A stretch of 64,000 nt of DNA from Escherichia coli (lineage in GTDB: Bacteria; Pseudomonadota; Gammaproteobacteria; Enterobacterales; Enterobacteriaceae), in the NCBI RefSeq assembly GCF_044324875.1, contig NZ_CP172185.1; one strand, given 5' to 3'. The notes under the pieces were generated by a model. That model made no database searches, had not been told where the DNA came from, and worked only from the letters and a program-made list of their open reading frames with translations. Shown piece after piece: positions 1 through 52,325 of this stretch (position 1 is its first letter; the number at the start of each line of letters is the position of its first letter). The position numbers and the translations under genes were made by a program.

Positions 1-443
1 GGATTCGTACCATTCGGAAGCAAGCAGCGAGTATTTACGCACCAGGTACAACCTTTACAATTGGCAAAGGGCAGGTATTACGTGAAGGTACGGATGTCAC
101 CTTAATTGCTAATGGCATTATGGTGGTGGAAGCCCTGGAGGCCGCACGTCAACTTGAGCTGGCTGGGGTAAGTGTAGCGGTGATTGATATGTTTACGCTC
201 AAACCCGTTGATCGGATGTTAATTAAAAATTATGCCGAAAAAACAGGACGGATCGTAACATGTGAAAACCATAGTATTCATAATGGATTAGGTTCAGCGG
301 TTGCTGAAGTGCTTGTAGAAACTTGTCCTGTGCCCATGCGTCGGGTGGGGGTTAAAGAGCGGTATGGCCAGGTTGGAACTCAGGACTTTTTACAGAGAGA
401 GTACGGGTTAACCGCGCAAGATATTGGTAAGCGTACAGCCTGA
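1..443 (+). CDS. Transketolase C-terminal subunit, 5'-partial (runs off window start); 3' end rewritten by IS66 insertion
   Basis: Frame continuous from position 3 (…IGKGQVLREGTDVTLIANGIMVVEALEAARQLELAGVSVAVIDMFTLKPVDR…), typical transketolase C-terminal domain. Last codons GKRTA-stop lie inside the IS66 terminal repeat. Confidence 0.75.
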   Translation, partial: IRTIRKQAASIYAPGTTFTIGKGQVLREGTDVTLIANGIMVVEALEAARQLELAGVSVAVIDMFTLKPVDRMLIKNYAEKTGRIVTCENHSIHNGLGSAVAEVLVETCPVPMRRVGVKERYGQVGTQDFLQREYGLTAQDIGKRTA

Positions 444-497: not shown

Positions 498-899
498 GTG
501 GGAACCAAAGTGTCAGATATGCAGAAAAATGTGACTCCCGGCAGGCGAAAAGGCTGCCCTAATTATCCTCCCGAATTTAAACAGCAGCTCGTTGCTGCCT
601 CCTGTGAACCCGGGATATCCATCTCAAAACTTGCTCTTGAAAATGGCATTAACGCCAATCTGTTGTTCAAATGGCGACAACAATGGCGCGAGGGAAAGCT
701 GCTATTACCTTCTTCAGAGAGCCCCCAGCTACTTCCTGTGACTCTCGATGCAGCTGCCGAACAGCCAGAATCGCTCGCAGAGGACCCGGAAACCCTCAGT
801 ATCAGCTGTGAGGTAACGTTCCGGCACGGGACGCTCCGCTTCAATGGCAATGTCAGCGAAAAGCTCCTGACTCTGCTGATACAGGAACTGAAGCGATGA
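498..899 (+). CDS. tnpA: IS66-family accessory protein TnpA (likely true start at internal Met near 519)
   Basis: First gene of the three-gene IS66 arrangement; motif …GISISKLALENGINANLLFKWRQQWREG…. Confidence 0.8.
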   Translation: MGTKVSDMQKNVTPGRRKGCPNYPPEFKQQLVAASCEPGISISKLALENGINANLLFKWRQQWREGKLLLPSSESPQLLPVTLDAAAEQPESLAEDPETLSISCEVTFRHGTLRFNGNVSEKLLTLLIQELKR

Positions 900-1243
900 T
901 CCCTTTACCTTCCGGGACCAAAATTTGGCTGGTTGCCGGTATCACCGATATGAGAAATGGCTTCAACGGCCTGGCTGCGAAAGTACAGACGGCGCTGAAA
1001 GACGATCCCATGTCCGGCCATGTTTTCATTTTCCGGGGCCGCAGCGGCAGTCAGGTTAAACTGCTGTGGTCCACCGGTGACGGACTGTGCCTCCTGACCA
1101 AACGGCTGGAGCGTGGGCGCTTCGCCTGGCCGTCAGCCCGTGATGGCAAAGTGTTCCTTACACAGGCGCAGCTGGCGATGCTGCTGGAAGGTATCGACTG
1201 GCGACAGCCTAAGCGGCTGCTGACCTCCCTGACCATGCTGTAA
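896..1243 (+). CDS. tnpB: IS66-family TnpB
   Basis: 115 aa, [26 protein letters not shown]…; start overlaps tnpA stop by 4 nt. Confidence 0.85.
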
Positions 1244-1292
1244 ATCTCTTTATCCTGGTTGTCACAGAATAAGCCCGGTAAAATACGGGCTT

Positions 1293-2831
1293 ATGAACGA
1301 CATCTCTTCTGACGACATCTTCCTGCTGAAACAGCGCCTGGCCGAACAGGAAGCGCTGATCCACGCCCTGCAGGAAAAGCTGAGCAACCGGGAGCGCGAA
1401 ATAGACCATCTGCAGGCGCAGCTGGATAAACTCCGCCGGATGAACTTCGGCAGTCGTTCCGAAAAAGTCTCCCGCCGTATCGCACAAATGGAAGCCGATC
1501 TGAACCAGCTTCAGAAAGAGAGCGATACGCTGACTGGTAGGGTGTATGACCCGGCAGTACAGCGTCCGTTGCGTCAGACCCGCATCCGTAAGCCGTTCCC
1601 TGAATCACTACCCCGTGACGAAAAGCGACTGTTGCCTGCGGCGCCGTGCTGCCCGAACTGCGGCGGTTCACTGAGCTATCTGGGCGAGGATACCGCCGAA
1701 CAGCTGGAGTTGATGCGTAGCGCCTTCCGGGTTATCCGGACGGTACGGGAAAAACATGCCTGTACTCAGTGCGATGCCATCGTGCAGGCACCTGCACCTT
1801 CGCGGCCCATCGAGCGGGGTATCGCCGGACCGGGGCTGCTGGCCCGCGTGCTGACCTCGAAGTATGCAGAGCACACCCCGCTGTATCGCCAGTCAGAAAT
1901 ATACGGCCGGCAAGGTGTGGAGCTGAGCCGTTCACTGCTGTCGGGCTGGGTGGATGCATGCTGCCGGCTGCTGTCTCCGCTGGAAGAGGCGCTTCATGGC
2001 TATGTCATGACTGACGGCAAACTCCATGCCGATGATACCCCGGTCCAGGTACTGATGCCGGGTAATAAGAAGACGAAGACCGGGCGGTTGTGGGCGTATG
2101 TTCGTGATGACCGCAATGCCGGGTCAGCGTTGGCACCTGCAGTGTGGTTCGCTTACAGCCCGGACAGAAAAGGCATCCATCCGCAGACTCATCTTGCTTG
2201 CTTCAGCGGTGTGCTGCAAGCGGATGCGTACGCCGGGTTCAACGAGCTGTATCGCAATGGTGGGATAACGGAAGCTGCCTGCTGGGCTCATGCCCGCCGA
2301 AAGATCCACGATGTGCACGTCCGCATCCCGTCAGCACTGACGGAAGAAGCCCTGGAGCAGATCGGTCAGTTGTACGCCATAGAGGCGGATATAAGGGGAA
2401 TGCCGGCAGAGCAGCGGCTTGCTGAACGTCAGCGAAAAACGAAACCGCTGTTGAAATCCCTGGAAAGCTGGTTGCGTGAAAAGATGAAGACCCTGTCGCG
2501 ACACTCAGAGTTGGCGAAGGCGTTCGCGTACGCACTTAACCAGTGGCCGGCACTGACGTACTATGCGAACGATGGCTGGGTGGAAATCGACAACAACATC
2601 GCTGAAAATGCCCTGCGGGCGGTAAGTCTGGGTCGTAAAAACTTCCTGTTCTTCGGCTCTGGCCATGGTGGTGAGCGGGGAGCGCTACTGTACAGCCTGA
2701 TAGGGACGTGCAAACTGAATGACGTGGATCCAGAAAGCTACCTTCGCCATGTGCTTGGCGTCATAGCAGACTGGCCGGTCAACCGGGTCAGCGAACTGCT
2801 TCCGTGGCGCATAGCACTGCCAGCTGAATAA
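1293..2831 (+). CDS. tnpC: IS66-family transposase TnpC
   Basis: 512 aa with N-terminal coiled-coil/leucine zipper, CxxC…CxxC zinc motif and conserved C-terminal …[15 protein letters not shown]…. Confidence 0.9.
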
Positions 2832-3113: not shown

Positions 3114-3893
3114 CTATGAAAAATGTTTAAGTCGATATTGAACCGGACTCATACCATCGAGTTTCTCTTTAATGCGATGGTGATTGTAGTATTCAATGTA
3201 ATCAATTATATCTTGCTTTAGATGATGTAACTTATTGTATTTATTTAGATAGTAACATTCTGATTTTAATGTACTAAAAAAGCTTTCCATTGCTGCATTA
3301 TCTAAGCAGTTACCACGTCGGGACATGCTTTGTGTTATGCCATTATCACTCAACCAACGTTGCCAACGAGGCATCTGATATTGCCACCCCTGATCACTAT
3401 GCAACAAGGGCTTATCGTCTTTATTGAGTTGTTCTACCGCATCTAATAGCATGCTCTTTACCATTGATGCTAATGGGCGCTCAGTAAGGTTATATGAGAC
3501 TATTTCTCCATTATACAGGTCCATGATTGGTGATAAATAGAGCTTCCTGCCATCGACCTTAAACTCAGTGACATCTGTTACCCACTTTTGATTTGGGCGG
3601 TCAGCATAAAATTGTCTCTTCAGTAAATTATTACAAGTTCGCCCCTGTTCTCCACGATAGGCACGGTACTTCTTGCGCCTGATAAGTGAGCTGATACCCA
3701 GTTCCTTCATTAACTTTCTGATGGTTTTACCATTAAGTAAAATGCCCTCGTTACGGCAGGCAAGTCTGATGCGTCGATAACCATAACGCCCTTTATGCTG
3801 ATGGTATATTCTCAATATTACTTGTTTAACAAGTTGATATGGATCTGGCGCATTAAGGCGTTTCACGTGATAGTAAAATGTACTACGTGGCAA
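3114..3893 (-). CDS. IS3-family transposase OrfB (DDE integrase core); probably expressed by frameshift from orfA
   Basis: 259 aa with …WVTDVTEF… and …HSDQGWQY… motifs typical of the IS3 DDE domain. Confidence 0.8.
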   Translation of the reverse strand: MPRSTFYYHVKRLNAPDPYQLVKQVILRIYHQHKGRYGYRRIRLACRNEGILLNGKTIRKLMKELGISSLIRRKKYRAYRGEQGRTCNNLLKRQFYADRPNQKWVTDVTEFKVDGRKLYLSPIMDLYNGEIVSYNLTERPLASMVKSMLLDAVEQLNKDDKPLLHSDQGWQYQMPRWQRWLSDNGITQSMSRRGNCLDNAAMESFFSTLKSECYYLNKYNKLHHLKQDIIDYIEYYNHHRIKEKLDGMSPVQYRLKHFS

Positions 3894-3952
3894 ATCAGCG
3901 ATAACCAGTAATTGTGATAATGGATGACATTGCCTTAACTCATTAATAATGA

Positions 3953-4453
3953 TTACTTTTTCTTTTGTTCCAATCGTAATTTTTCCTGAGCTAAGGCTTT
4001 CAGCTTTTTTAGATAAGCGTTCTCAACTCTCAGAAACTCAAGTTCTTCCCGTTCACTGATTGTCAGTTGTGTCGAACGATTTCGTTGATAAACAGCAGGA
4101 GTTTTCGGCCTCAAATCTTCCTTTTGTCCCTTCATCGAAAAATCAACCTCACTGTATTTTTTAATCCATTTGGATATGGTGTTAAAAGCAGGGATCCCAT
4201 ACTTCACTGCAGCTTCCCTTATAGAAAGAGAATTATCAATAACATCTCTGACCACATTCAATCTGAAGTTATCGTCATAACGTCTTTTTTGCCCAGTCAG
4301 TGTTTTTAATCCGTGCTTACGGTAAACATAAGCCCATTTCCTTACCGTGCTGGGGTCAATATTGTACATTTTTCCAACAGACTTCAAACTCAGCTCACCT
4401 TCCAGGTATTTTTCTGATACTTCCCTTTTGAATTCTAATGAAAATTTGCTCAT
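3953..4453 (-). CDS. IS3-family transposase OrfA (HTH)
   Basis: 166 aa, MSKFSLEFKREVSEKYLEGELSLKSVGKMYNIDPSTVRKW…, C-terminal leucine-zipper-like region. Confidence 0.8.
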   Translation of the reverse strand: MSKFSLEFKREVSEKYLEGELSLKSVGKMYNIDPSTVRKWAYVYRKHGLKTLTGQKRRYDDNFRLNVVRDVIDNSLSIREAAVKYGIPAFNTISKWIKKYSEVDFSMKGQKEDLRPKTPAVYQRNRSTQLTISEREELEFLRVENAYLKKLKALAQEKLRLEQKKK

Positions 4454-4559
4454 ACGCTCCTCAGTTACAGATCTGGTGTCTAACTATTGGGGCGCACTTC
4501 ATCAAACTGGTGGACGCCTGTTATGGAGCAAAAACATTATCCGCAGAACCCCGCAGATC

Positions 4560-4682
4560 ATTTTCAAATGAGTTAAACTTCAAATGGTTAAACTGGTTTT
4601 GCAACCAGGAGCCTCTGTTGCCCGTATTGCCCGGGAACACGATATCAATGATAACCTCCTGTTCAAATGGCTCAGACTCTGG
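4560..4682 (+). pseudogene. IS66-family orfA-like fragment
   Basis: One frame reads …GASVARIAREHDINDNLLFKWLRLWQNVR-stop, resembling the IS66 TnpA core; no start codon and no partner genes. Confidence 0.35.
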
Positions 4683-5548
4683 CAGAACGTAAGGTAAAGG
4701 GAGATGAAAAAGGCAATAGCAGAACTGAGTGACAGTGAAACCATTCTGGCGTACAGGGTTGGATGGTGAAACTGATAAAAAAACCCCTCTGAAAATTCTG
4801 TCAGAGGGGTGTAGTCAATAAGGGTGTCATATTCAACATGAAGATGTCTTCTGGGAATGTTTACATAGCAAATGCTTTCACTCCGGTAATTAATTTCCGT
4901 GATTAACTGCTTTCGATCAATAAAGGAATTGCAAAAGTGTGATCTTGTTCACGACATTGTGGATGATAATATGCCTGATGTCTGAATCCGGAAACAGTGA
5001 TCTGGCGGTTTCATGTGAAGTTGACGGATAAAAAATCCGCACGACCAGACAGACGTGCGGTTTACGAAATTCGTAACAAGAGGCTTTTCTACGGATCACG
5101 TGGTGCGTGCCACGTGAAATTTTTGTAGCGCAAAATGTGTGATGTGTAAATACAAGGAAGGAAAAAAGTTAAATCGGTGGAAGTCCATGCCTGCCACATG
5201 TATGTCTGCATTCCTCGTTTTGAACAGAATTCTCACCAGACATCGTGAATTTCTCATTCAATCATCAGAGATATTACCCAGGATTTTTATTGTTTTGTGA
5301 TAGCAGTACTTTAAATGTTCAGATGCTAAAATAAGCGCGCTTATTATAATTATAGTTATGATGTTTTATCTTTATGTATTTTAATGATTTTCTCGTCATT
5401 GCTTTTCTGCTGCTTAAATTGAGGGCGCATATTATACACAATAATATTCCTGGCATTATTAAATTAATAAAAGAGGATTCTTATCACTGTATTTTTGCTC
5501 CGCACTACCGTTCTGGCTGGTGAAGTAATAATACAGGAGAATAACAGA

Positions 5549-7096
5549 ATGCTTAAAAGACGTGATGCTTTTTTAAAGAAAAGCGCGCTGGCAGTGAGTG
5601 TGGCCCTGCTGCTCTCATCTCAGGCTCAGGCTCAGGATATTTTATTCGGACCGATTCAACCTGGCGAAGATAATAGCTTTCTTGTTGGAGATTCAGTAGC
5701 TGGCCGTTCGTCTGGTGACATAAGAAATGTATGGTTGGTGGGTGATAATTCTTTTTTATTAGACTCAAACAGGACTGTGCTTTTGGGGAATAATTCTGGT
5801 GTTGTGAGCTCTCCGGGAAGTGTGAGTCTGGGGCATGATGCACTTATTGCTGACTCTGAATGGGGGACTGTTGCAGGAAAAGAAGCGTCACTTATTTCTT
5901 CTCGTCAGAGCTCGGCAATTGGTGCGTTTTCATCTGTGCAGGATTCTACCAGTTCTGTAGCTCTGGGCCATGGCTCACAGGTGTCGGGAGAAAATAACGT
6001 GGTATCTGTTGGTGCCGGGCCTGAGGGATATGGAGAGAGTGTCAAAGGAGCACCGGAAACCCGCCGGATTATAAATGTGTCTGATGGTATCAATAACACA
6101 GATGCAGCGACGGTAGGGCAACTGAATGAACGATTTGATGATGCACAGGTCTTTTTGTTGCAGACGAATGAAAGAATTGACGAGACAGATAAACGTCTTT
6201 CAACAGTTCATGCTGAACTCAGCAGGGATATTATTGCAGGCACATCGGCAGCGGTGACGTATACAGATGTAACAGCGCTTGCACTTCAGGATGAGATAAA
6301 GGATGGGACGAACAAAGTACGTGATGAGTTGAAATCACAGGGAGACAGTCTGCGTGGTGAGATAGGCGGTGTATACAGAGATGCCCGTGCTCATACTGAC
6401 AGTCAGGTCACAGCAGTACGTGATGAACTGAAGGCAGAGGGAGACAGTCTGCGCGGTGAGATAGGCGGTGTATACAGAGATGCCCGTGCTCATACTGACA
6501 GTCAGGTTACAGCAGTACGTGATGAACTCAGCAGGGATATTATTGCAGGCACATCGGCAGCGGTGGCGTATACGGATGCATCTTCTCTTGCTCTTCAGGA
6601 TGAAATAAAAGAAAAAGCGGATGAAACAGTTCAGGTTTCCCGGGCTTATACAGATAAAAGTGTACGGGATGCCCGTAAAGAAGCGAAAAGCCAGGCAGAA
6701 CATCTCAGCGATGTGCTTGTGAAGAACAGGGCGCAGACGGATGCAGCAATAGCCTCAAATACAGCAGCGATAAGGAATAACAGTCATCGTCTGGATTTGA
6801 CGGAAGCCTGGCAGAAGATGGCGACAGAGAGAATGAATAATATGCAGGAGCAGATTAAAGAGAACCGGAAGGAGTTAAGGGAGAGTGCAGCCCAGAGCGC
6901 GGCACTGGCAGGTCTTTTCCAGCCATACAGTGTTGGAAAATTTAACGCGACAGCAGCCGTTGGTGGTTACCGTGATGAGCAGGCCATTGCGGTGGGCGTG
7001 GGCTACCGTTTCACAGAGAATGTGGCAGGAAAAGTTGCAGTTGCTGCAGGTGGGTCATCCGCATCGTGGAATGCTGGTGTGAATTTTGAGTTCTGA
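5549..7096 (+). CDS. Trimeric autotransporter adhesin (YadA-like C-terminal anchor) with internal repeats
   Basis: Signal peptide [28 protein letters not shown] after a GGAGA ribosome-binding site. Coiled-coil stalk with repeats. C-terminal membrane anchor …[19 protein letters not shown]…GVNFEF. The ORF track starts 18 codons upstream at 5495. Confidence 0.75.
6320..6517. repeat. Two near-identical 99-bp in-frame tandem repeats inside the adhesin gene
   Basis: GGAGACAGTCTGCG(T/C)GGTGAGATAGGCGGTGTATACAGAGATGCCCGTGCTCATACTGACAGTCAGGT… recurs with 99-bp period (encoding [30 protein letters not shown] twice). A second repeat pair (…[13 protein letters not shown]…LALQDEIK) brackets them. Confidence 0.85.
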
Positions 7097-7157
7097 CAGG
7101 TCAGGATTTAGATATCTGTCCCGGGGGGAGTCCCCCGGGATATAATGAGGTACAGAG

Positions 7158-7613
7158 ATGCTGGATATAATCCTGGCGACGAGAGATATTTATTTTGAAA
7201 AAGCCCTGCGAGAGATATTTGGAACCGTAAGCAGTCGAATCAGATATATAGAAGATGCCATATCAGACAGAAGAAGGGTGCAGTCAGGCAGGTCATTCAG
7301 ATATTATTTTGTATTCTGTGATGATGAGTATACAGATATTGTTCGTATTCTTTTTACCGGAGAGGCCTGCTGTATTCTGAATAAGTCGATGCTGAATCTG
7401 AGAGCGGCCGGAGGTGTGTTGACGCTGGAAGAGCGCAGAGCGGTACTGAACCGGTATTACAGAGGTTTAAGTATTGCGGAGATTACAGAAGAGACGGGGC
7501 AGAATGACAAGACGGTATACGGTCATCTTCGTCGTGCACTGCAGCGGTCTGGATTCCGGAAGGGGCGTTTTATAAAGGGGAGAGAAGCGGCGGGGGATTC
7601 AGGTGTTGAATAA
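7158..7613 (+). CDS. Small putative HTH regulator (LuxR / sigma-70 region-4-like C-terminus)
   Basis: 151 aa; C-terminal …LTLEERRAVLNRYYRGLSIAEITEETGQNDKTVYGHLRRAL… resembles a LuxR-type helix-turn-helix. Sits 60 bp downstream of the adhesin gene. Confidence 0.4.
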   Translation: MLDIILATRDIYFEKALREIFGTVSSRIRYIEDAISDRRRVQSGRSFRYYFVFCDDEYTDIVRILFTGEACCILNKSMLNLRAAGGVLTLEERRAVLNRYYRGLSIAEITEETGQNDKTVYGHLRRALQRSGFRKGRFIKGREAAGDSGVE

Positions 7614-7859
7614 TGTATCTTATATTGTGATATCGGTGCTGCTGCTGTTATTTTTTGTTGTATTTGTGACGAATGGTTAAGAATAAAACATGAGTTGGTG
7701 ATTATCAGGACAGGTTGCTTGTATATGAAGATAACAAAGGCGGCATTTATTTTTGCGCTGTCAGTGTGGAGTGTTGCTGTGATATGTCTTTTATTATTTG
7801 TACTGGTTGTTCTGGGATAGCCATAGTGAAATAAAAAGCTGTCTGAATTAAATTATTTT

Positions 7860-9170
7860 GCACACATGTTTTAATTCTGCACTGAATTCAGAATGGGTAA
7901 TCAGTGACCGTCCAGGCGGTCACCGAACTCGATAATAAAGCGGCTCATTGCCATTCGCCAGTCCTTCAACGGCATCGTCCATTTCTGGGACGCAGACTGG
8001 ATTGCCAGCCACACCACTTTTTTCACCGAGTCGTCTGTCGGGAACACTTTACGCTTTTTGATCGCATGGCGGATCACGCTGTTTAGCGACTCGATTGCAT
8101 TCGTCGTATAGATCACTTTGCGGATGTCCGTTGGATAAGCGAAGAACGTGGCAAGATTCGGCCAGTTAGCCTGCCAGCTTCGGCTTATCTGAGGATAGCG
8201 ACTGTCCCAGGCCGCAGCGAACGCTTCCAGTGCCTGCTGACCTGCCTCTTCCGTGGGAGCCTGATAAATCGCTTTCAGGTCGCGAGTGACGGCTTTGTAG
8301 TCCTTCCATGACACGAAGCGCAGGCTGTTGCGCACCATATGCACGATGCATAACTGGATGCGGGCCTTCGGATATACTGTGTTGATGGCATCCGGGAAGC
8401 CTTTCAGGCCATCCACACAGGCGATGAGGATATCGTTCAGACCGCGGTTTTTCAGTTCAGTCAGCACATTGAGCCAGAACTTCGCCCCTTCATTTTCGGC
8501 CAGCCACATACCCAGCAGTTCCTTCTGACCTTCGATATTGATGCCCAGTGCCAGGAACACCGATTTGTTGATGACGCGACTGTCCTGCCGAACTTTCAGG
8601 ACGATACAGTCAAGATAAACAATGGGGTAAACAGCATCCAGTGGTCTGTTTTGCCATTCTACAACCTGCTCCATCACGGCATCGGTGACCTTTGATATCA
8701 GTGCCGGTGAAACATCTGCGTCATACAGTTCTTTGAACGCAGTAGCTATCTCACGGGTGGTCATCCCTTTGGCATACAACGAGAGGATCTGGTTATCCAT
8801 CCCGGTAATACGGGTCTGATTTTTCTTTACCAGTTGTGGTTCGAAGGTACCGTCACGATCGCGCGGAGTACGCAGTTCCAGTGGACCGTCGCCTGTGATA
8901 ACGGTCTTTGTGGAATAACCGTTGCGGGAGTTAGCTCCTGGTCTGGACTGATTTTTCTCATACCCAAGATGGTGTGTCATCTCTGCATTGAGAGCGGCTT
9001 CAACGCTGAGCTTTTTCAGCAGCCGATCAAACTGACTGAGGTCTTCAGGGGTTTTGAGGTTTTTGGCCAGTTCGTTAGCCAGAGCCTGTAACTGTTTTTC
9101 GTCCATAAATTAACCTTCATTTGATGCTGGATTGAACATATCAAAATCAGGCAATTACACAAATCTATGT
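7860..9170 (-). mobile_element. IS256-family insertion sequence (boundaries approximate)
   Basis: Single 401-aa transposase ORF with about 50-60 bp flanks; terminal repeats not confidently delimited by eye. Confidence 0.6.
7901..9106 (-). CDS. IS256-family transposase
   Basis: 401 aa, MDEKQLQALANELAKNLKTPEDL… with …YLDCIVLKVRQ… and …CIVHMVRNSL… motifs typical of IS256 (mutator-type) transposases. Confidence 0.85.
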   Translation of the reverse strand: MDEKQLQALANELAKNLKTPEDLSQFDRLLKKLSVEAALNAEMTHHLGYEKNQSRPGANSRNGYSTKTVITGDGPLELRTPRDRDGTFEPQLVKKNQTRITGMDNQILSLYAKGMTTREIATAFKELYDADVSPALISKVTDAVMEQVVEWQNRPLDAVYPIVYLDCIVLKVRQDSRVINKSVFLALGINIEGQKELLGMWLAENEGAKFWLNVLTELKNRGLNDILIACVDGLKGFPDAINTVYPKARIQLCIVHMVRNSLRFVSWKDYKAVTRDLKAIYQAPTEEAGQQALEAFAAAWDSRYPQISRSWQANWPNLATFFAYPTDIRKVIYTTNAIESLNSVIRHAIKKRKVFPTDDSVKKVVWLAIQSASQKWTMPLKDWRMAMSRFIIEFGDRLDGH

Positions 9171-9277: not shown

Positions 9278-10051
9278 TCATAATTGCCATTTTAAATGCA
9301 GGCCTAATTGCAGCCCATTGAAATTATGGTTCGGTGTTTTATACCAAACTTTACCTGCCGTCAGCCCGAGATTAAGTTGCTCAGTCAGCGGTTGAATACG
9401 TTGTAAACTGACGCTCTTCATGCTGCCGTATCGTGTTTCTGGCGTCCAGTCATAGGTGTAAGCACCTGTTCCGCGGCTTAGCCATAGTTGTGTATAACCA
9501 GCACCGCGCGGGTCCTTCAGACGCACGGAAATCATATTGCTGTAACTACCAGCTGCATCGCTGGAGTCATAATGGGTATAGCGGTAGCTGGTGATCACCG
9601 GGCCAGTATAGAGAGATACGCCGCCTTGCCAGGCATCGACTTCGACATCATCGTAATATTTAGTGTAGCGATAACCGGTCGTGAAAAGCGTTTTTGGCAA
9701 CAGGGCCAGGTTAATATCCTGACGAAAATCCTGACGGGCAAAGACCGGCGTATTATCCGCAAAGGCAATACCCGTTCGGGTTGTCAGCCAGTTATTCCAT
9801 TTGTACCAGACTGCACCCTGGCCGCGAGTGGCATTGAAATGTTCAGTTTCATAATCACGACGCCCCTGGGAAAGATTAAAAAGCAGCGTTGCGTTTTCAA
9901 CTTTTGCCACCAGTTCAGCATAAGCTAAATTACGGTTGCCATGGTCGCCAGAATAATCGGTAAAATCGTAGCCCGTGGTAATGGAAGTTAACCCGGCATA
10001 AGCGGGCAATGCACTAAAAAAAAACGGCATTAATAACGTATGCTTTATCAT
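9278..10051 (-). CDS. yaiO: YaiO-family outer-membrane beta-barrel protein
   Basis: 257 aa, signal peptide, alternating aromatic/Tyr-rich strands, C-terminal …GLHLKWQL; closely resembles E. coli YaiO as recalled. Confidence 0.7.
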   Translation of the reverse strand: MIKHTLLMPFFFSALPAYAGLTSITTGYDFTDYSGDHGNRNLAYAELVAKVENATLLFNLSQGRRDYETEHFNATRGQGAVWYKWNNWLTTRTGIAFADNTPVFARQDFRQDINLALLPKTLFTTGYRYTKYYDDVEVDAWQGGVSLYTGPVITSYRYTHYDSSDAAGSYSNMISVRLKDPRGAGYTQLWLSRGTGAYTYDWTPETRYGSMKSVSLQRIQPLTEQLNLGLTAGKVWYKTPNHNFNGLQLGLHLKWQL

Positions 10052-10052
10052 T

Positions 10053-10763
10053 TTAATCTCCTGTACGGATAAGTTCTTGTCGGAGTGAGTAAGTTCCGGT
10101 AGGTAAATTACGTTCTACAATCACGCGCGGGCCAAGTTGCGTGTTCGGGGAAATAATTCGCCCGGGCAAAATAATAACCTGTACGCCAAGGCGTGAACGC
10201 TGCCCGATATAACAACCTAATTTATCGCATCCGGTAGCGATAATTCCATCTGGCGTTCGAACAGACACGGGCTGTTCATCCAGACGATGATTACTGGTAC
10301 GTACTTGTGCGCCCAGATATGCCTGGTTTGCAACTACCGAGTCGGCAACAAAGCATTGCGGACCAATCGTTGCTTCCGTTTCAATAACCGCATTTTTAAT
10401 TTCGGTGGCAAAACCAATTTTTACGCCATTGCTGATTATTGTGCCAGGACGAATAAACGCATAATTACCTATCAGGCAGTTTGCGCCAATCACTACCGGC
10501 CCCTGAATAACGGCACCGTGGCAAATACGGGTATTCGCGCCGATAACAACTTCACCTGCACTTTCATCAATAATTACCTGGTCTGCAATCTGAGTATTTT
10601 TCTCTTTAACATTAAGCTCCAGATAGTTTTTCAGTTTCTGTGACAGAAGGTTGGGAATAAGCGGTTGACGTTTCCACCAGTGCGGAATAGCGGGTGGGTT
10701 TGTCGCGCTGAGGTTCGCGTCCAGTAAAAAAGGCAATAAGTCCATAAATAATCCAGATGGCAT
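10053..10763 (-). CDS. yaiX: Hexapeptide-repeat (left-handed beta-helix) acyltransferase, YaiX-like; true start probably downstream of 10763
   Basis: Repeated [LIV]-G-x-x-x-x-I hexapeptide pattern (…VIGANTRICHGAVIQGPVVIGANCLIGNYAFIRPGTIISNGVKIG…). The ORF as drawn overlaps the upstream gene by about 150 nt. Confidence 0.65.
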   Translation of the reverse strand: MPSGLFMDLLPFLLDANLSATNPPAIPHWWKRQPLIPNLLSQKLKNYLELNVKEKNTQIADQVIIDESAGEVVIGANTRICHGAVIQGPVVIGANCLIGNYAFIRPGTIISNGVKIGFATEIKNAVIETEATIGPQCFVADSVVANQAYLGAQVRTSNHRLDEQPVSVRTPDGIIATGCDKLGCYIGQRSRLGVQVIILPGRIISPNTQLGPRVIVERNLPTGTYSLRQELIRTGD

Positions 10764-11808
10764 AAGCTAATAATACATACACAACGGAAAGCGGAGCTAA
10801 AGGTACCAACAACCAGCAACGATGAAACCAGGCGCTAAAAGTACCAATAACACAAACTATGCCGACCCAGATAAGCGGGAACATTGCCATCACCACACCA
10901 TGTGGCCCGGTGGTGATGAATTCATTAAACCAGGTAGTGAGATAAATCCCAACGCCATAAAGCACAACCAGCAGCATAGGAAATATACTGAAGATACCGA
11001 AGCGGCTAAATAAAAGTCTTTTATGCAGGCGCATACAGACCGCGTAGCCCACAATCCAGCGCCGCCAGCGACGCCACTCCTCACGAAGGCTGTTGCATTC
11101 CTGTGGGTATACGATACAGCGATTCACCTGCCGAATACGGTAACCATTGGCGACCAATGTCCAGGTGAGATCGAGATCTTCAACTTTGGTACGGTCCGAA
11201 AAACCGAATTTACGCAGCACATCGGTACGGAACATCCCGCAGGCACCGCTGATAATAAACGGTGCACCACCCAGGAACTGCTGTAGCGTACGCTTCATAG
11301 CAATCATCGGCAACTTTACGGTGGCGCGGATATGTGGCAGCAGACCTGCCCCTTTTAACGCGGTGGAGGGAATTCCGCCAACGGCATCAGCGCCGCGCTC
11401 AATTTCTGCCAGCATATAGCCCATTCCATCACTGTCAGGTGGAACGAAAGTATCTGCATCACTTAAAAATACTTGATCACACGTGGCGTATTTTATTCCA
11501 TGCATTAGTGCGCCACCTTTACCGGTGTTTTTTTGCGTGACGGCAACAAAGCGGTCGCCCCATTTGCGTTTGACTTCCGCCATGACCGCTTCGGTATTGT
11601 CCGTGGAGCCGTCGTTAACGCAAATTACCCGGCAAAAATAAGGGTTACGCAGCAGATTATCCAGTGACTGCGCCAGACACGGGCCTTCGTTATAAGCAGG
11701 TATAATGACGTCAATACAGCCTTTCTTTTGACTGGGTTTACGTCTTAGCGTACTTAAAAACCATAGCAACATTACTATGGACATACAGATAAATATCCAA
11801 GTCTTCAT
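10612..11808 (-). CDS. yaiP: Family-2 glycosyltransferase (YaiP-like), membrane-anchored
   Basis: 398 aa; N-terminal TM, then …VIIPAYNEGPCLAQSL…VNDGSTDNT… (GT-A fold DxD-type motifs) and C-terminal TM helices. Confidence 0.75.
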   Translation of the reverse strand: MKTWIFICMSIVMLLWFLSTLRRKPSQKKGCIDVIIPAYNEGPCLAQSLDNLLRNPYFCRVICVNDGSTDNTEAVMAEVKRKWGDRFVAVTQKNTGKGGALMHGIKYATCDQVFLSDADTFVPPDSDGMGYMLAEIERGADAVGGIPSTALKGAGLLPHIRATVKLPMIAMKRTLQQFLGGAPFIISGACGMFRTDVLRKFGFSDRTKVEDLDLTWTLVANGYRIRQVNRCIVYPQECNSLREEWRRWRRWIVGYAVCMRLHKRLLFSRFGIFSIFPMLLVVLYGVGIYLTTWFNEFITTGPHGVVMAMFPLIWVGIVCVIGTFSAWFHRCWLLVPLAPLSVVYVLLAYAIWIIYGLIAFFTGREPQRDKPTRYSALVETSTAYSQPSVTETEKLSGA

Positions 11809-11821
11809 TTATGAAATCCAG

Positions 11822-12475
11822 TCATAACACCATTTTGTATATAATAAAACCTTCGCACATAGCGCAGTTTGCCTGTTGCCCTCTGAAACTGGCCTGACTA
11901 TGTAAATATTCATGTTGCATATATTTACGTTGACTCTGGCTTTTATGCTCTTTCAATGCCATTAATTTTTTATTAAATTCATTCTGCTCTATTGCTTCAA
12001 AAGCATGAGGGGAAAATGAAATCCATGCACTTGGTGTTTCATATCCCAGTATCTGAGGAATATAACGACAGGCAACCATTGATGCCTGATAAACAGCAAT
12101 ATGATCCTGATGCCTGTCAGAATTATTCATGGTATAAACTCTCGTAATTTCGACATCCTGAGGGATATCATTAGCAATTATATTTTCCAGGGAAGATATC
12201 ATGTCTCTTATCTGTAAATAAAGACGGGTATCCTCAAAATTAAGATGAATTGACTTGTCACATCCCAGTATTTTTAATGCTTTCTGTGACTCTTTATGAC
12301 GGTCAGTATCTTTTCCCCCACAACAACCGGGGGTCATAACTACCGCGATAGTATATATATTTCTGGCAGAAAAAGTTGCAAGAGATGCACCACATCCTAA
12401 TTCTATGTCATCAGGATGTGCACCTATTGCCAGTACACCTGTTCTCTTTCCTGAATATGTGATAGAATTTAACAA
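11822..12475 (-). CDS. yaiS: PIG-L/LmbE-family deacetylase (YaiS-like)
   Basis: 217 aa with …AHPDDIELGCG… and …HQDH… zinc-binding signature of LmbE-type N-acetylglucosaminyl deacetylases. Confidence 0.75.
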   Translation of the reverse strand: MLNSITYSGKRTGVLAIGAHPDDIELGCGASLATFSARNIYTIAVVMTPGCCGGKDTDRHKESQKALKILGCDKSIHLNFEDTRLYLQIRDMISSLENIIANDIPQDVEITRVYTMNNSDRHQDHIAVYQASMVACRYIPQILGYETPSAWISFSPHAFEAIEQNEFNKKLMALKEHKSQSQRKYMQHEYLHSQASFRGQQANCAMCEGFIIYKMVL

Positions 12476-51742: not shown

Positions 51743-52197
51743 TCAGCGCCGGCATCCAGATGGATGAGACTGACGCCATAACGCCGGATGAGTGTGACAA
51801 CCAGACGACGAAACGTTTTTGACAGACCCAGGCGTTTAAGCCGCAGAGCCGGGTACGACCACGCATCGGTACGTAACAGATATCCGCTGCCTGTAAAATG
51901 AATCCATTCTGATTCGCCGGTGTCATTCGTCTGATGCGACAGCGAGTACAGCCAGGCATTGTCCTGTTCCGTGATATGTGCGGTACTGCAGCGTATGCCG
52001 GTAAGGGCCGCAAATGGTGGCATGCAGTCTGCTGAGGTCCGGTCAGATTCATCAACAACACGAAGGGAACAGCCGTTATCGCAGACCACGTTAATCAGTT
52101 CAGCGAGATTAACACCATCGACGTCAGCGACAATGCGCCCCATGTTCAGTGCCTGCACGTTAACGCTGTCGGCTTCCAGTGTCAGGGACAGTTTCAT
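51709..52197 (-). CDS. Hypothetical protein (162 aa) immediately downstream of cbtA
   Basis: Start overlaps the cbtA stop (ATGA). Confidence 0.4.
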   Translation of the reverse strand: MKLSLTLEADSVNVQALNMGRIVADVDGVNLAELINVVCDNGCSLRVVDESDRTSADCMPPFAALTGIRCSTAHITEQDNAWLYSLSHQTNDTGESEWIHFTGSGYLLRTDAWSYPALRLKRLGLSKTFRRLVVTLIRRYGVSLIHLDAGAECLPGLPTFDW

Positions 52198-52325
52198 GGT
52201 TTCACCTCACAGTGTTTACCCAGGGTGATGTTGTTCACCATTCGGTAGTGGCTGCGGGTCATCAGCCCGGTTGCCCGGCGGGCCCGGAGAATATCAATGC
52301 TGCTGATTAACTGAGAACGGGTACT
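52194..52325 (-). pseudogene. cbtA: cbtA-like toxin gene, 3' portion (separated from 5' portion by IS100)
   Basis: …TRSQLISSIDILRARRATGLMTRSHYRMVNNITLGKH… continues the CbtA frame once IS100 and one copy of the duplication are removed. Confidence 0.7.

Follow-up and report, generated by a model that had tools for sequence, protein, structure and literature searches.

A predicted TosE-like regulator gene linked to an Eib-related adhesin gene on Escherichia coli genomic islands

Described systems closest to the gene at 7158-7613

Small regulators encoded at the 3′ end of adhesin operons, such as PapX and MrpJ, couple adhesin expression to repression of flagella. We analysed a 64,000-nucleotide (nt) stretch of Escherichia coli DNA (contig NZ_CP172185.1 of assembly GCF_044324875.1; hereafter the window), in which a gene at positions 7158-7613 encodes a 151-amino-acid (aa) protein with a helix-turn-helix (HTH) at its C-terminus and directly follows the gene of a trimeric autotransporter adhesin. 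Our comparisons group this protein with TosE and ORF-156 (PHROG 6585) in a small family confined to E. coli, of which it forms a third and very divergent branch. The predicted regulator would add a distant member to a kind of element already known, the small regulator at the 3′ end of an adhesin unit. PapX and MrpJ differ from it in belonging to MarR-like and Xre-like families and in accompanying fimbrial adhesins. A literature search found no paper on the adhesin/HTH gene pair, and none naming TosE together with Eib.

TosE, a 160-aa protein encoded on PAI-aspV of uropathogenic E. coli, is similar to the 151-aa protein in size and two-domain layout, is collinear with it over the full length and is likewise restricted to E. 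coli. Its gene lies directly 3′ of the non-fimbrial adhesin gene tosA, on the same strand and after a G+C-rich hairpin, as the window gene does with respect to its own adhesin gene. Identity between the two proteins is 22-26%, however, and the adhesins differ, TosA being a type I-secreted RTX/Ig-like protein and the window adhesin a trimeric autotransporter. The tos operon further includes TosF and the PapB-type TosR, neither of which is found at the window module; the ORF-156 branch is without TosF as well, and TosF and TosR thus define the tos operon, not the protein family. Control of the tos adhesin operon lies with TosR, H-NS and Lrp (PMC5956150, PMC7545054, PMC10392849). TosE, acting with TosF, is the one homologue for which experimental work exists: two of these papers describe TosE and TosF as 'associated with suppression of motility' (PMC5956150, PMC7545054), and the other includes TosEF among listed fliC regulators (PMC10392849). 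RNA-seq reads from tosE and tosF were too few to score, and tosCBD was induced (PMC5956150).

In P-EibD and P-EibA the order is eib, a stem-loop ~25 nt after the stop codon, orf-156 and then orf-60, overlapping by one base, and phages PhiR5_1 and GER2 have the same order with Eib-type adhesins. ORF-156, known only as an unnamed open reading frame (ORF) in GenBank records without reported function, is a full-length homologue of the window protein (N-termini MKVILATRNRYLE and MLDIILATRDIYFE). Its gene lies directly 3′ of the Eib trimeric adhesin gene, with the stem-loop between them and the small membrane ORF next, and the adhesins of both loci are related. In contrast to the window gene, which is carried on chromosomal islands with no phage genes nearby, orf-156 sits in a prophage moron region after tail-fibre genes, and one ORF-156 sub-branch occurs without an adhesin. 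Marks of the eib-type cassette are non-immune immunoglobulin binding by its adhesin and a prophage location, the latter not shared by the window locus. From sequence and gene order we read the locus as an island-borne relative of the eib cassette, the tos operon having the same adhesin/hairpin/TosE-type order.

AutA and AutR are orphan LuxR/GerE-type regulators encoded beside upaB that bind and regulate the upaB promoter, and regulate many other genes (PMC4844996). As with the window protein, these HTH proteins have no accompanying sensor kinase and their genes neighbour that of an autotransporter adhesin, here on a horizontally acquired islet of avian pathogenic E. coli (APEC) (PMC4844996). 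They differ in not forming one operon with upaB, whose product is a classical (type Va) and not a trimeric (type Vc) autotransporter. No sequence relationship to the 151-aa protein was detectable, exhaustive and profile searches having returned neither of them.

The window gene is an intact ORF of 151 codons with an ATG start and a ribosome-binding site, and RefSeq annotates its product (WP_000884153.1) as a 'sigma factor-like helix-turn-helix DNA-binding protein', otherwise uncharacterised. The initial annotation of the window had described a small 151-aa HTH protein gene on the same strand just after the trimeric autotransporter gene. The ORF, the ribosome-binding site and a Pfam HTH match all bore this out, and the gap between the two genes measures 61 nt (TGA 7094-7096 to ATG 7158). 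GC skew was strongly positive (0.19-0.32) over the adhesin and regulator genes (window 5600-7600) vs ~0 in the flanks.

Homology to TosE and ORF-156 and domain layout

In a word-indexed protein search, the 151-aa sequence matched nothing beyond near-identical proteins of E. coli, partial copies and frameshifted variants, together with one Salmonella-labelled contig bearing a near-identical gene in the same island context. Exhaustive phmmer against 1.84 billion representatives gave near-identical E. coli copies and four HTH-only matches (E ~3e-4). The view of the gene as an orphan was dropped once profile comparison revealed homology to TosE and ORF-156. The first lead came from a tblastn search of plasmids, with a weak full-length match on E. 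coli IncF plasmids (E 0.1, residues 2-132) to a 160-aa 'sigma factor-like HTH' protein. Its gene comes immediately behind that of a huge Ig-like adhesin, with type I secretion genes upstream and a GerE-type regulator gene next. The chromosomal version in strains ATCC 25922, Nissle 1917 and 83972 is found in an island also bearing pic, in the order PapB-family/TolC/ABC/HlyD/Ig-like adhesin/sigma-like HTH/HTH; this order is that of the tosRCBDAEF operon, its sigma-like HTH gene being tosE. The IncF tos-like operon (fetched locus L013, 7001-12834, E. coli CI5; also L014) has 74% DNA identity to the chromosomal one, and beside it, on the opposite strand, are a PapB/FocB-type regulator gene and the gene of a 1250-aa classical autotransporter. 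Within the window itself, tblastn gave a weak match at 51926-52207, in no plausible gene.

Direct comparisons extended the similarity over both domains. BLASTP aligned the protein with the plasmid TosE-like protein at 22% identity over aa 2-132 (E 5e-10) and, collinearly, with ORF-156D at ~22% identity (E 2e-4). By hhalign, five TosE sequences matched in both domains at a probability of 93.9% (E 1.6e-7), and a set of ten TosE and ORF-156 sequences at 96.8% (E 3e-10), residues 2-134 aligning onto 1-146. The N-terminal domain alone gave an hhalign E value of 2.3e-5, and its Smith-Waterman scores against three TosE N-termini stood 4.0-8.4 standard deviations above 2000 shuffles. PHROG 6585, an externally built profile, matched TosE over its full length (E 3.6e-31) and the 151-aa protein over aa 3-75 (E 3.3e-4).

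The phage branch was recovered by tblastn of phage records with the TosE query alone, which returned orf-156A, C, D and E of the P-Eib prophages of ECOR-9 at 35% identity and further relatives in phages PhiR5_1, PhiR12, GER2 and 2B8 and in Stx1a phages; the same search with the 151-aa protein gave nothing significant. An ORF-156-like sub-branch, ~29% identical to TosE and 180 aa long, occurs in lambdoid and Stx1a prophages (L023, 4001-4543, phage 2B8; enterohaemorrhagic E. coli, EHEC), where it adjoins nleG/espM effector genes with no trimeric adhesin gene nearby. A profile search of a 5.8-billion-protein collection added no further branches, all matches being from E. coli. Common to the three branches are collinear similarity in both domains, a length of ~150-160 aa with a KTV-bearing C-terminal HTH, and a gene position 3′ of a non-fimbrial adhesin gene with a hairpin between. 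Their base compositions differ strongly (26-29% GC for TosE, 46% for the window gene and 54% for ORF-156), which fits long separate histories.

The Pfam family Sigma70_r4_2 matched aa 87-130 (E 2.2e-7, 30.9 bits vs a gathering score of 25.7), in agreement with the LuxR/sigma-region-4-like C-terminal HTH noted earlier. Pfam GerE did not match the 151-aa protein and, in this respect, the homologue TosE differs, matching both families and exceeding the GerE gathering score. NCBIfam sigma models scored 12-21 bits vs cut-offs of 43-350, the aligned part being aa 67-130 only, and aa 1-86 gave zero Pfam family matches even at E 10. Sigma region 2 was undetectable (Pfam, NCBIfam, and the N-terminal 86 aa against Pfam at E 10), as was a receiver domain (Pfam and NCBIfam scans). 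Identity as a sigma-70 or extracytoplasmic function (ECF) sigma factor was rejected, region 4 alone having matched, and so was identity as a FixJ/NarL (LuxR-type) response regulator, which requires a receiver domain bearing a phospho-acceptor aspartate together with a GerE HTH. Because the sigma models fell far below their cut-offs and aa 1-86 had no Pfam match, we describe the protein as a predicted HTH domain behind an N-terminal domain without a Pfam family, and as neither a sigma factor nor a response regulator.

Residues K118, T119, V120, Y121 and H123 are conserved in the alignment between the 151-aa protein and TosE-type sequences, K118-T119-V120 being kept in ORF-156 too, and the conserved family residues cluster in the HTH recognition region. 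The K-T-V(-H) pattern is the usual DNA-reading pattern of LuxR/GerE recognition helices. AlphaFold without an alignment gave a useless model (predicted local distance difference test, pLDDT, 37); with nine family sequences, pLDDT rose to 64 and the predicted template modelling score was 0.65. In this second model residues 90-131 form a three-helix HTH with pLDDT 83-89, which superposes on the region 4 (-35-binding) domains of ECF sigma factors at 0.6-0.9 Å over 42 residues and, by structure search, resembles GerE/NarL-type domains as well. The N-terminal part was modelled as strand-helix, a disordered segment at 24-49 and then strand-helix-strand-strand. Full-length Foldseek alignments to StyR, RcsB and FixJ were weak (probability 0.1-0.28), and a truncated receiver-like N-terminal fold is possible.

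Linkage to the adhesin gene and possible function

Of 5426 complete E. coli genomes, 183 carry the regulator gene. It is chromosomal in every case and was found at 321 places, up to eight of them in one genome. A 921-nt probe covering the adhesin 3′ end, the spacer and the gene was contiguous at ≥99% identity in 163 of these 183 genomes (326 places). All three non-contiguous genomes inspected were explained by insertion sequences (IS), with IS421 sitting in the hairpin between the genes or ISEc12 within the regulator gene, and one further record has ISKpn26 annotated between the adhesin and regulator genes. Co-occurrence, proposed initially as a check on the pairing, therefore favours linkage. 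The adhesin upstream region with the signal-peptide coding sequence was found in 372 genomes. In E. coli EC9952 (L011, 6651-12663), which has no HTH gene, the adhesin is cut to 188 aa by a chromosomal resistance region, sul2/aph(3'')-Ib/aph(6)-Id (strAB)/tet(A). Many other genomes carry a 93%-identical upstream region with a 'hypothetical protein' call, EC9952 being the sole one inspected. In the copies inspected, intact adhesin and HTH gene go together in both directions.

The conserved module (Table 1) occurred in at least three settings among the loci compared. In BEN2908 and MSHS 133 it follows a LacI/phosphotransferase system (PTS) IIA-IIB-IIC/split-transketolase cluster and precedes a lysozyme-inhibitor gene; in CP4-like islands it follows ProQ/IS1 and a transketolase 3′ fragment and precedes IS256/ISL3 and aerobactin or carbamate-kinase genes; and in the window it lies beside a yaiO/glycosyltransferase/deacetylase cluster, broken up on its left side by ISEc8 within an IS3-family element and on its right side by IS1414. 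Some genomes (AR13438, DG341-1, TUM1886) hold at least two complete, distant copies. Between contexts, identity is 92-98% over the first 1.1 kb, where a transposase fragment is joined by an AT-rich leader without coding sequence and by the signal-peptide region. It reaches ≥99% over the 3′ ~1.5 kb, in coding and non-coding DNA alike, and the adhesin passenger is variable. These comparisons indicate that the gene is part of an inherited cassette, comprising the Eib-related adhesin gene, the G+C-rich hairpin, the TosE-like gene and, tentatively, a small membrane ORF, and that the cassette moves as one ~3.4-kb block between E. coli genomic islands. The PTS/transketolase locus is the probable source, because other islands that received the module also hold the transketolase fragment. 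The tkt1 island of APEC O1, suspected from the nearby transketolase genes, was rejected, its published gene list being different. Carriers include islands of avian and human extraintestinal pathogenic E. coli (BEN2908, ST95-type) and of some Shiga toxin-producing E. coli.

A hairpin separates adhesin and regulator genes in all three branches. The two hairpins of the window spacer gave a 91-nt fold of -36.1 kcal/mol (z -3.1), none of 200 shuffles being equally stable, and an Rfam search of 4400-8000 gave sub-threshold chance matches only. TTTTT comes after the eib hairpin and TCTTTGG after the one in tos, while that of the window has no T-run behind it. The candidate promoter of the unit lies in the AT-rich leader (33% GC). 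It was picked out by a scan for sigma-70 sites that found 3 vs 6.9 expected and is a weak indication only; on the + strand of 5348-8000 the same scan found no sigma-70-like promoter. A TATAAT at 7141-7146 is too near the start codon to keep the ribosome-binding site on the transcript. An invertible or phase-variable promoter was rejected, a repeat search having found no convincing flanking inverted repeats.

Functional coupling of the gene to the adhesin is well supported. The reading that we favour, with a probability of about 0.5, is by analogy with tos: the protein would be a follower regulator through which expression of the adhesin is coupled to the repression of motility or of other surface programmes. 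Its gene would be transcribed by low-level read-through from the adhesin promoter past the hairpin. Read-through at a reduced level is probable because no sigma-70-like promoter was found between the leader and the end of the module and the TATAAT is too close to the start codon, and the low tosE/tosF read numbers are in line with low expression downstream of a hairpin. The amount of regulator would then follow how strongly the adhesin is transcribed. DNA binding would fall to the LuxR/sigma-4-type HTH at the C-terminus, whereas the N-terminal domain may serve in oligomerisation or partner binding. The main output would be a change in other surface programmes, in all likelihood a repression of flagellar motility like that reported for TosE/TosF, and switching on the adhesin would not be the main role of the regulator. 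Overexpression of tosEF reportedly lowers fliC expression, and deletion is said to raise motility.

Several observations weigh against this proposal. The homology on which the analogy depends is remote: TosE was not listed at E ≤ 0.001 by phmmer with the single protein, and support for the assignment comes from pairwise and profile comparisons together with synteny. AlphaFold and Foldseek gave no secure fold for the N-terminal domain. With a TosF-like query, tblastn of the window gave a best E value of 0.036, and no TosF-like gene was found in any module context; TosE acts with TosF, and with no TosF- or PapB-like gene in the window the function may differ. The hairpin at 7117-7142 has no T-run after it. 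Finally, recent purifying selection on the gene was not demonstrated. All seven nucleotide differences among the fetched copies are non-synonymous and none is synonymous, seven substitutions being too few for an informative selection test, and frameshifted, truncated or IS-disrupted copies also occur.

The same differences and disrupted copies could mean that the gene no longer has a function and is a decaying passenger of the adhesin gene. In keeping with this, the 3′ half of the module is nearly identical between copies even in its non-coding DNA, which points to recent spread rather than selection. The use of AGA or AGG for 11 of the 21 arginine codons also speaks for a passenger. Most inspected copies are intact, however, and six of the ten fetched loci carry a gene 100% identical to that of the window. 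Moreover, gene order and two-domain architecture survive ~22% identity and a GC range of 26-54%, which requires long-term selection on the family, and the residues that are conserved are concentrated in the HTH recognition region. We therefore consider mere carriage improbable.

The initial annotation had suggested a dedicated regulator of the adjacent adhesin, which would bind the AT-rich upstream region and activate the adhesin gene, relieve its silencing or feed back on it. AutA/AutR and upaB provide a precedent in E. coli (PMC4844996). In addition, the gene adjoins the adhesin gene in every E. coli copy inspected, synteny with trimeric adhesin genes is kept across ~22% protein identity, and the 1.05-kb upstream region moves with the gene pair. 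Linkage alone does not show adhesin regulation, however, and TosE/TosF are linked to motility suppression while the tos operon is under TosR, H-NS and Lrp. Expression of eib depends on the unlinked ibrAB genes, the ORF-156-like genes of EHEC prophages are without an adjacent adhesin gene, and a position downstream of the target and behind a hairpin would be odd for a primary activator. We regard this as a minority reading and as rather unlikely. Less probable still, and in our estimate very improbable, is a sigma-region-4 mimic or partner-dependent cofactor, in place of a classical DNA-binding regulator, whose target would be RNA polymerase, a protein resembling an anti-sigma factor, or a partner of the FixJ/NarL type, for instance RcsB. 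Its best Pfam and structural matches are indeed sigma region 4 domains, many of them solved with anti-sigma factors, the weak full-length alignments to RcsB, StyR and FixJ would be consistent with such a partner, and TosE works with a second HTH protein, TosF. Conservation of K118-T119-V120 in the three branches and of H123 in the window protein and TosE argues otherwise, as do the GerE score of TosE and the failure to detect either sigma region 2 or a receiver domain.

A follower regulator remains the reading that we prefer, and it could be widened to an E. coli-restricted, hitherto unrecognised family of 'adhesin-follower' regulators, recruited repeatedly behind unrelated adhesins (type I-secreted RTX proteins and type Vc trimeric autotransporters), every time with an attenuating hairpin ahead of the regulator gene. 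In the Eib type, the HTH protein and the small membrane protein might make up a minimal signalling pair, which would signal adhesin production or envelope load and reprogramme motility together with other surface structures. We hold this extension to be quite doubtful. The family placement does give TosE, ORF-156 and the window protein one common hypothesis, in which a small follower regulator would link expression of a non-fimbrial adhesin to motility or other surface programmes, and the three branches are natural variants ready for cross-complementation. Its practical value is modest, consisting of better annotation and a candidate regulator for studies of Eib-like adhesins, and the finding would not surprise a specialist.

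Features of the module and neighbouring genes

Table 1. Coordinates of the regulator gene, the adhesin module and its flanks (window positions unless a fetched locus is named)
Feature	Position	Strand	Remarks
TosE/ORF-156-family protein gene	7158-7613	+	151 aa; ATG 7158 to TAA 7611-7613; WP_000884153.1
Predicted N-terminal domain	7158-7415	+	aa 1-86; homologous to TosE and ORF-156 N-termini; alternating strand/helix, low-confidence prediction
C-terminal HTH, sigma region 4/LuxR-GerE type	7416-7547	+	aa 87-130
Shine-Dalgarno GAGG of HTH gene	7147-7150	+	7 nt ahead of ATG 7158
Hairpin 1	7085-7112	+	12-bp stem; overlaps adhesin stop codon
Hairpin 2	7117-7142	+	G+C-rich; 11-bp stem, GAGT loop; same position as eibA/eibD stem-loops and tosA hairpin
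Trimeric autotransporter adhesin gene, Eib-related	5549-7096	+	515 aa; signal peptide, head/neck, repeat-bearing coiled-coil stalk, YadA anchor
Two tandem repeats in adhesin stalk	6316-6513	+	99 bp (33 aa) each; part of strain-variable-length region
Candidate unit promoter	5318-5347	+	TTCAGA-18-TATTAT; lone + strand sigma-70-like site upstream of adhesin
Small ORF	7725-7820	+	31 aa, one predicted membrane helix; MKITKAAFIFALSVWSVAVICLLLFVLVVLG; 111 nt downstream of regulator gene
Conserved adhesin/regulator module	4502-7923	+	~3.4 kb; blastn of 4401-8000 vs 10 fetched loci
Left flank: transketolase C-terminal fragment	120-443		
Left flank: ISEc8	498-2831		IS66 family
Left flank: IS3-family element	3114-4453		
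Right flank: IS1414	7901-9106		IS256 family
IS421 copy, fetched locus L005	4835-5946		
IS421 copy, fetched locus L006	4834-5946		
IS421 copy, fetched locus L007	6607-7719		

Pfam matched YadA_anchor (E 3.3e-16) and YadA_stalk in the adhesin, and among PDB chains a search by sequence hit 2lme, the structure of the YadA anchor (E 2.2e-17), but no EibD entry. BLASTP against EibD gave E 5e-36 at 31% identity, the last ~60 anchor residues being nearly identical, and residues 398-490 were 57-62% identical to the EibA, PhiR5_1 and GER2 adhesins by tblastn. On these matches we class the adhesin as Eib-related. A bona fide Eib adhesin was rejected, the anchor and stalk being Eib-related but not the region solved in EibD. 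Its start is most likely ATG 5549 and not the mechanically listed TTG 5495, because AGGAG lies at 5535-5539 and RefSeq calls a 1548-nt gene on a 99.4% identical copy. The adhesins of different strains are 388-555 aa long, and the anchor and the downstream gene are nonetheless ≥99% identical. This pattern (window 5634-6450) suggests that the repeats mediate changes in length or that different passengers have recombined with an unchanging 3′ end. The stalk also contains a 106-nt dispersed repeat at 6198-6303 and 6507-6612.

An ATG overlaps the regulator stop codon (TAATG), as at orf-156/orf-60, and its frame ends after five codons. Further downstream, the 31-aa ORF is a possible third member of the cassette and counterpart of ORF-60: against the membrane (C-terminal) half of ORF-60 it had a Smith-Waterman score of 42 vs 23.6 ± 4.8, reached by 5 of 2000 shuffles, and the DNA around it is conserved to 7923 in all module contexts. 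It is, however, half as long as ORF-60, does not overlap the regulator gene and is without a clear ribosome-binding site, and could be either a small membrane protein gene or a chance ORF.

In other genomes IS421 (IS4 family) is inserted in the loop of hairpin 2, with a 12-bp target duplication corresponding to 7124-7135. Such copies are found in both the transketolase-locus and the CP4-island versions of the module, and either the hairpin is an insertion hot spot for IS421 or the insertion is older than the duplication of the module. Directly downstream of the module in the window, on the opposite strand (9278-12475), are genes of a YaiO-family outer-membrane barrel, a left-handed beta-helix acetyltransferase, a family-2 glycosyltransferase and a PIG-L deacetylase, a cluster that looks like one for surface polysaccharide modification or export.

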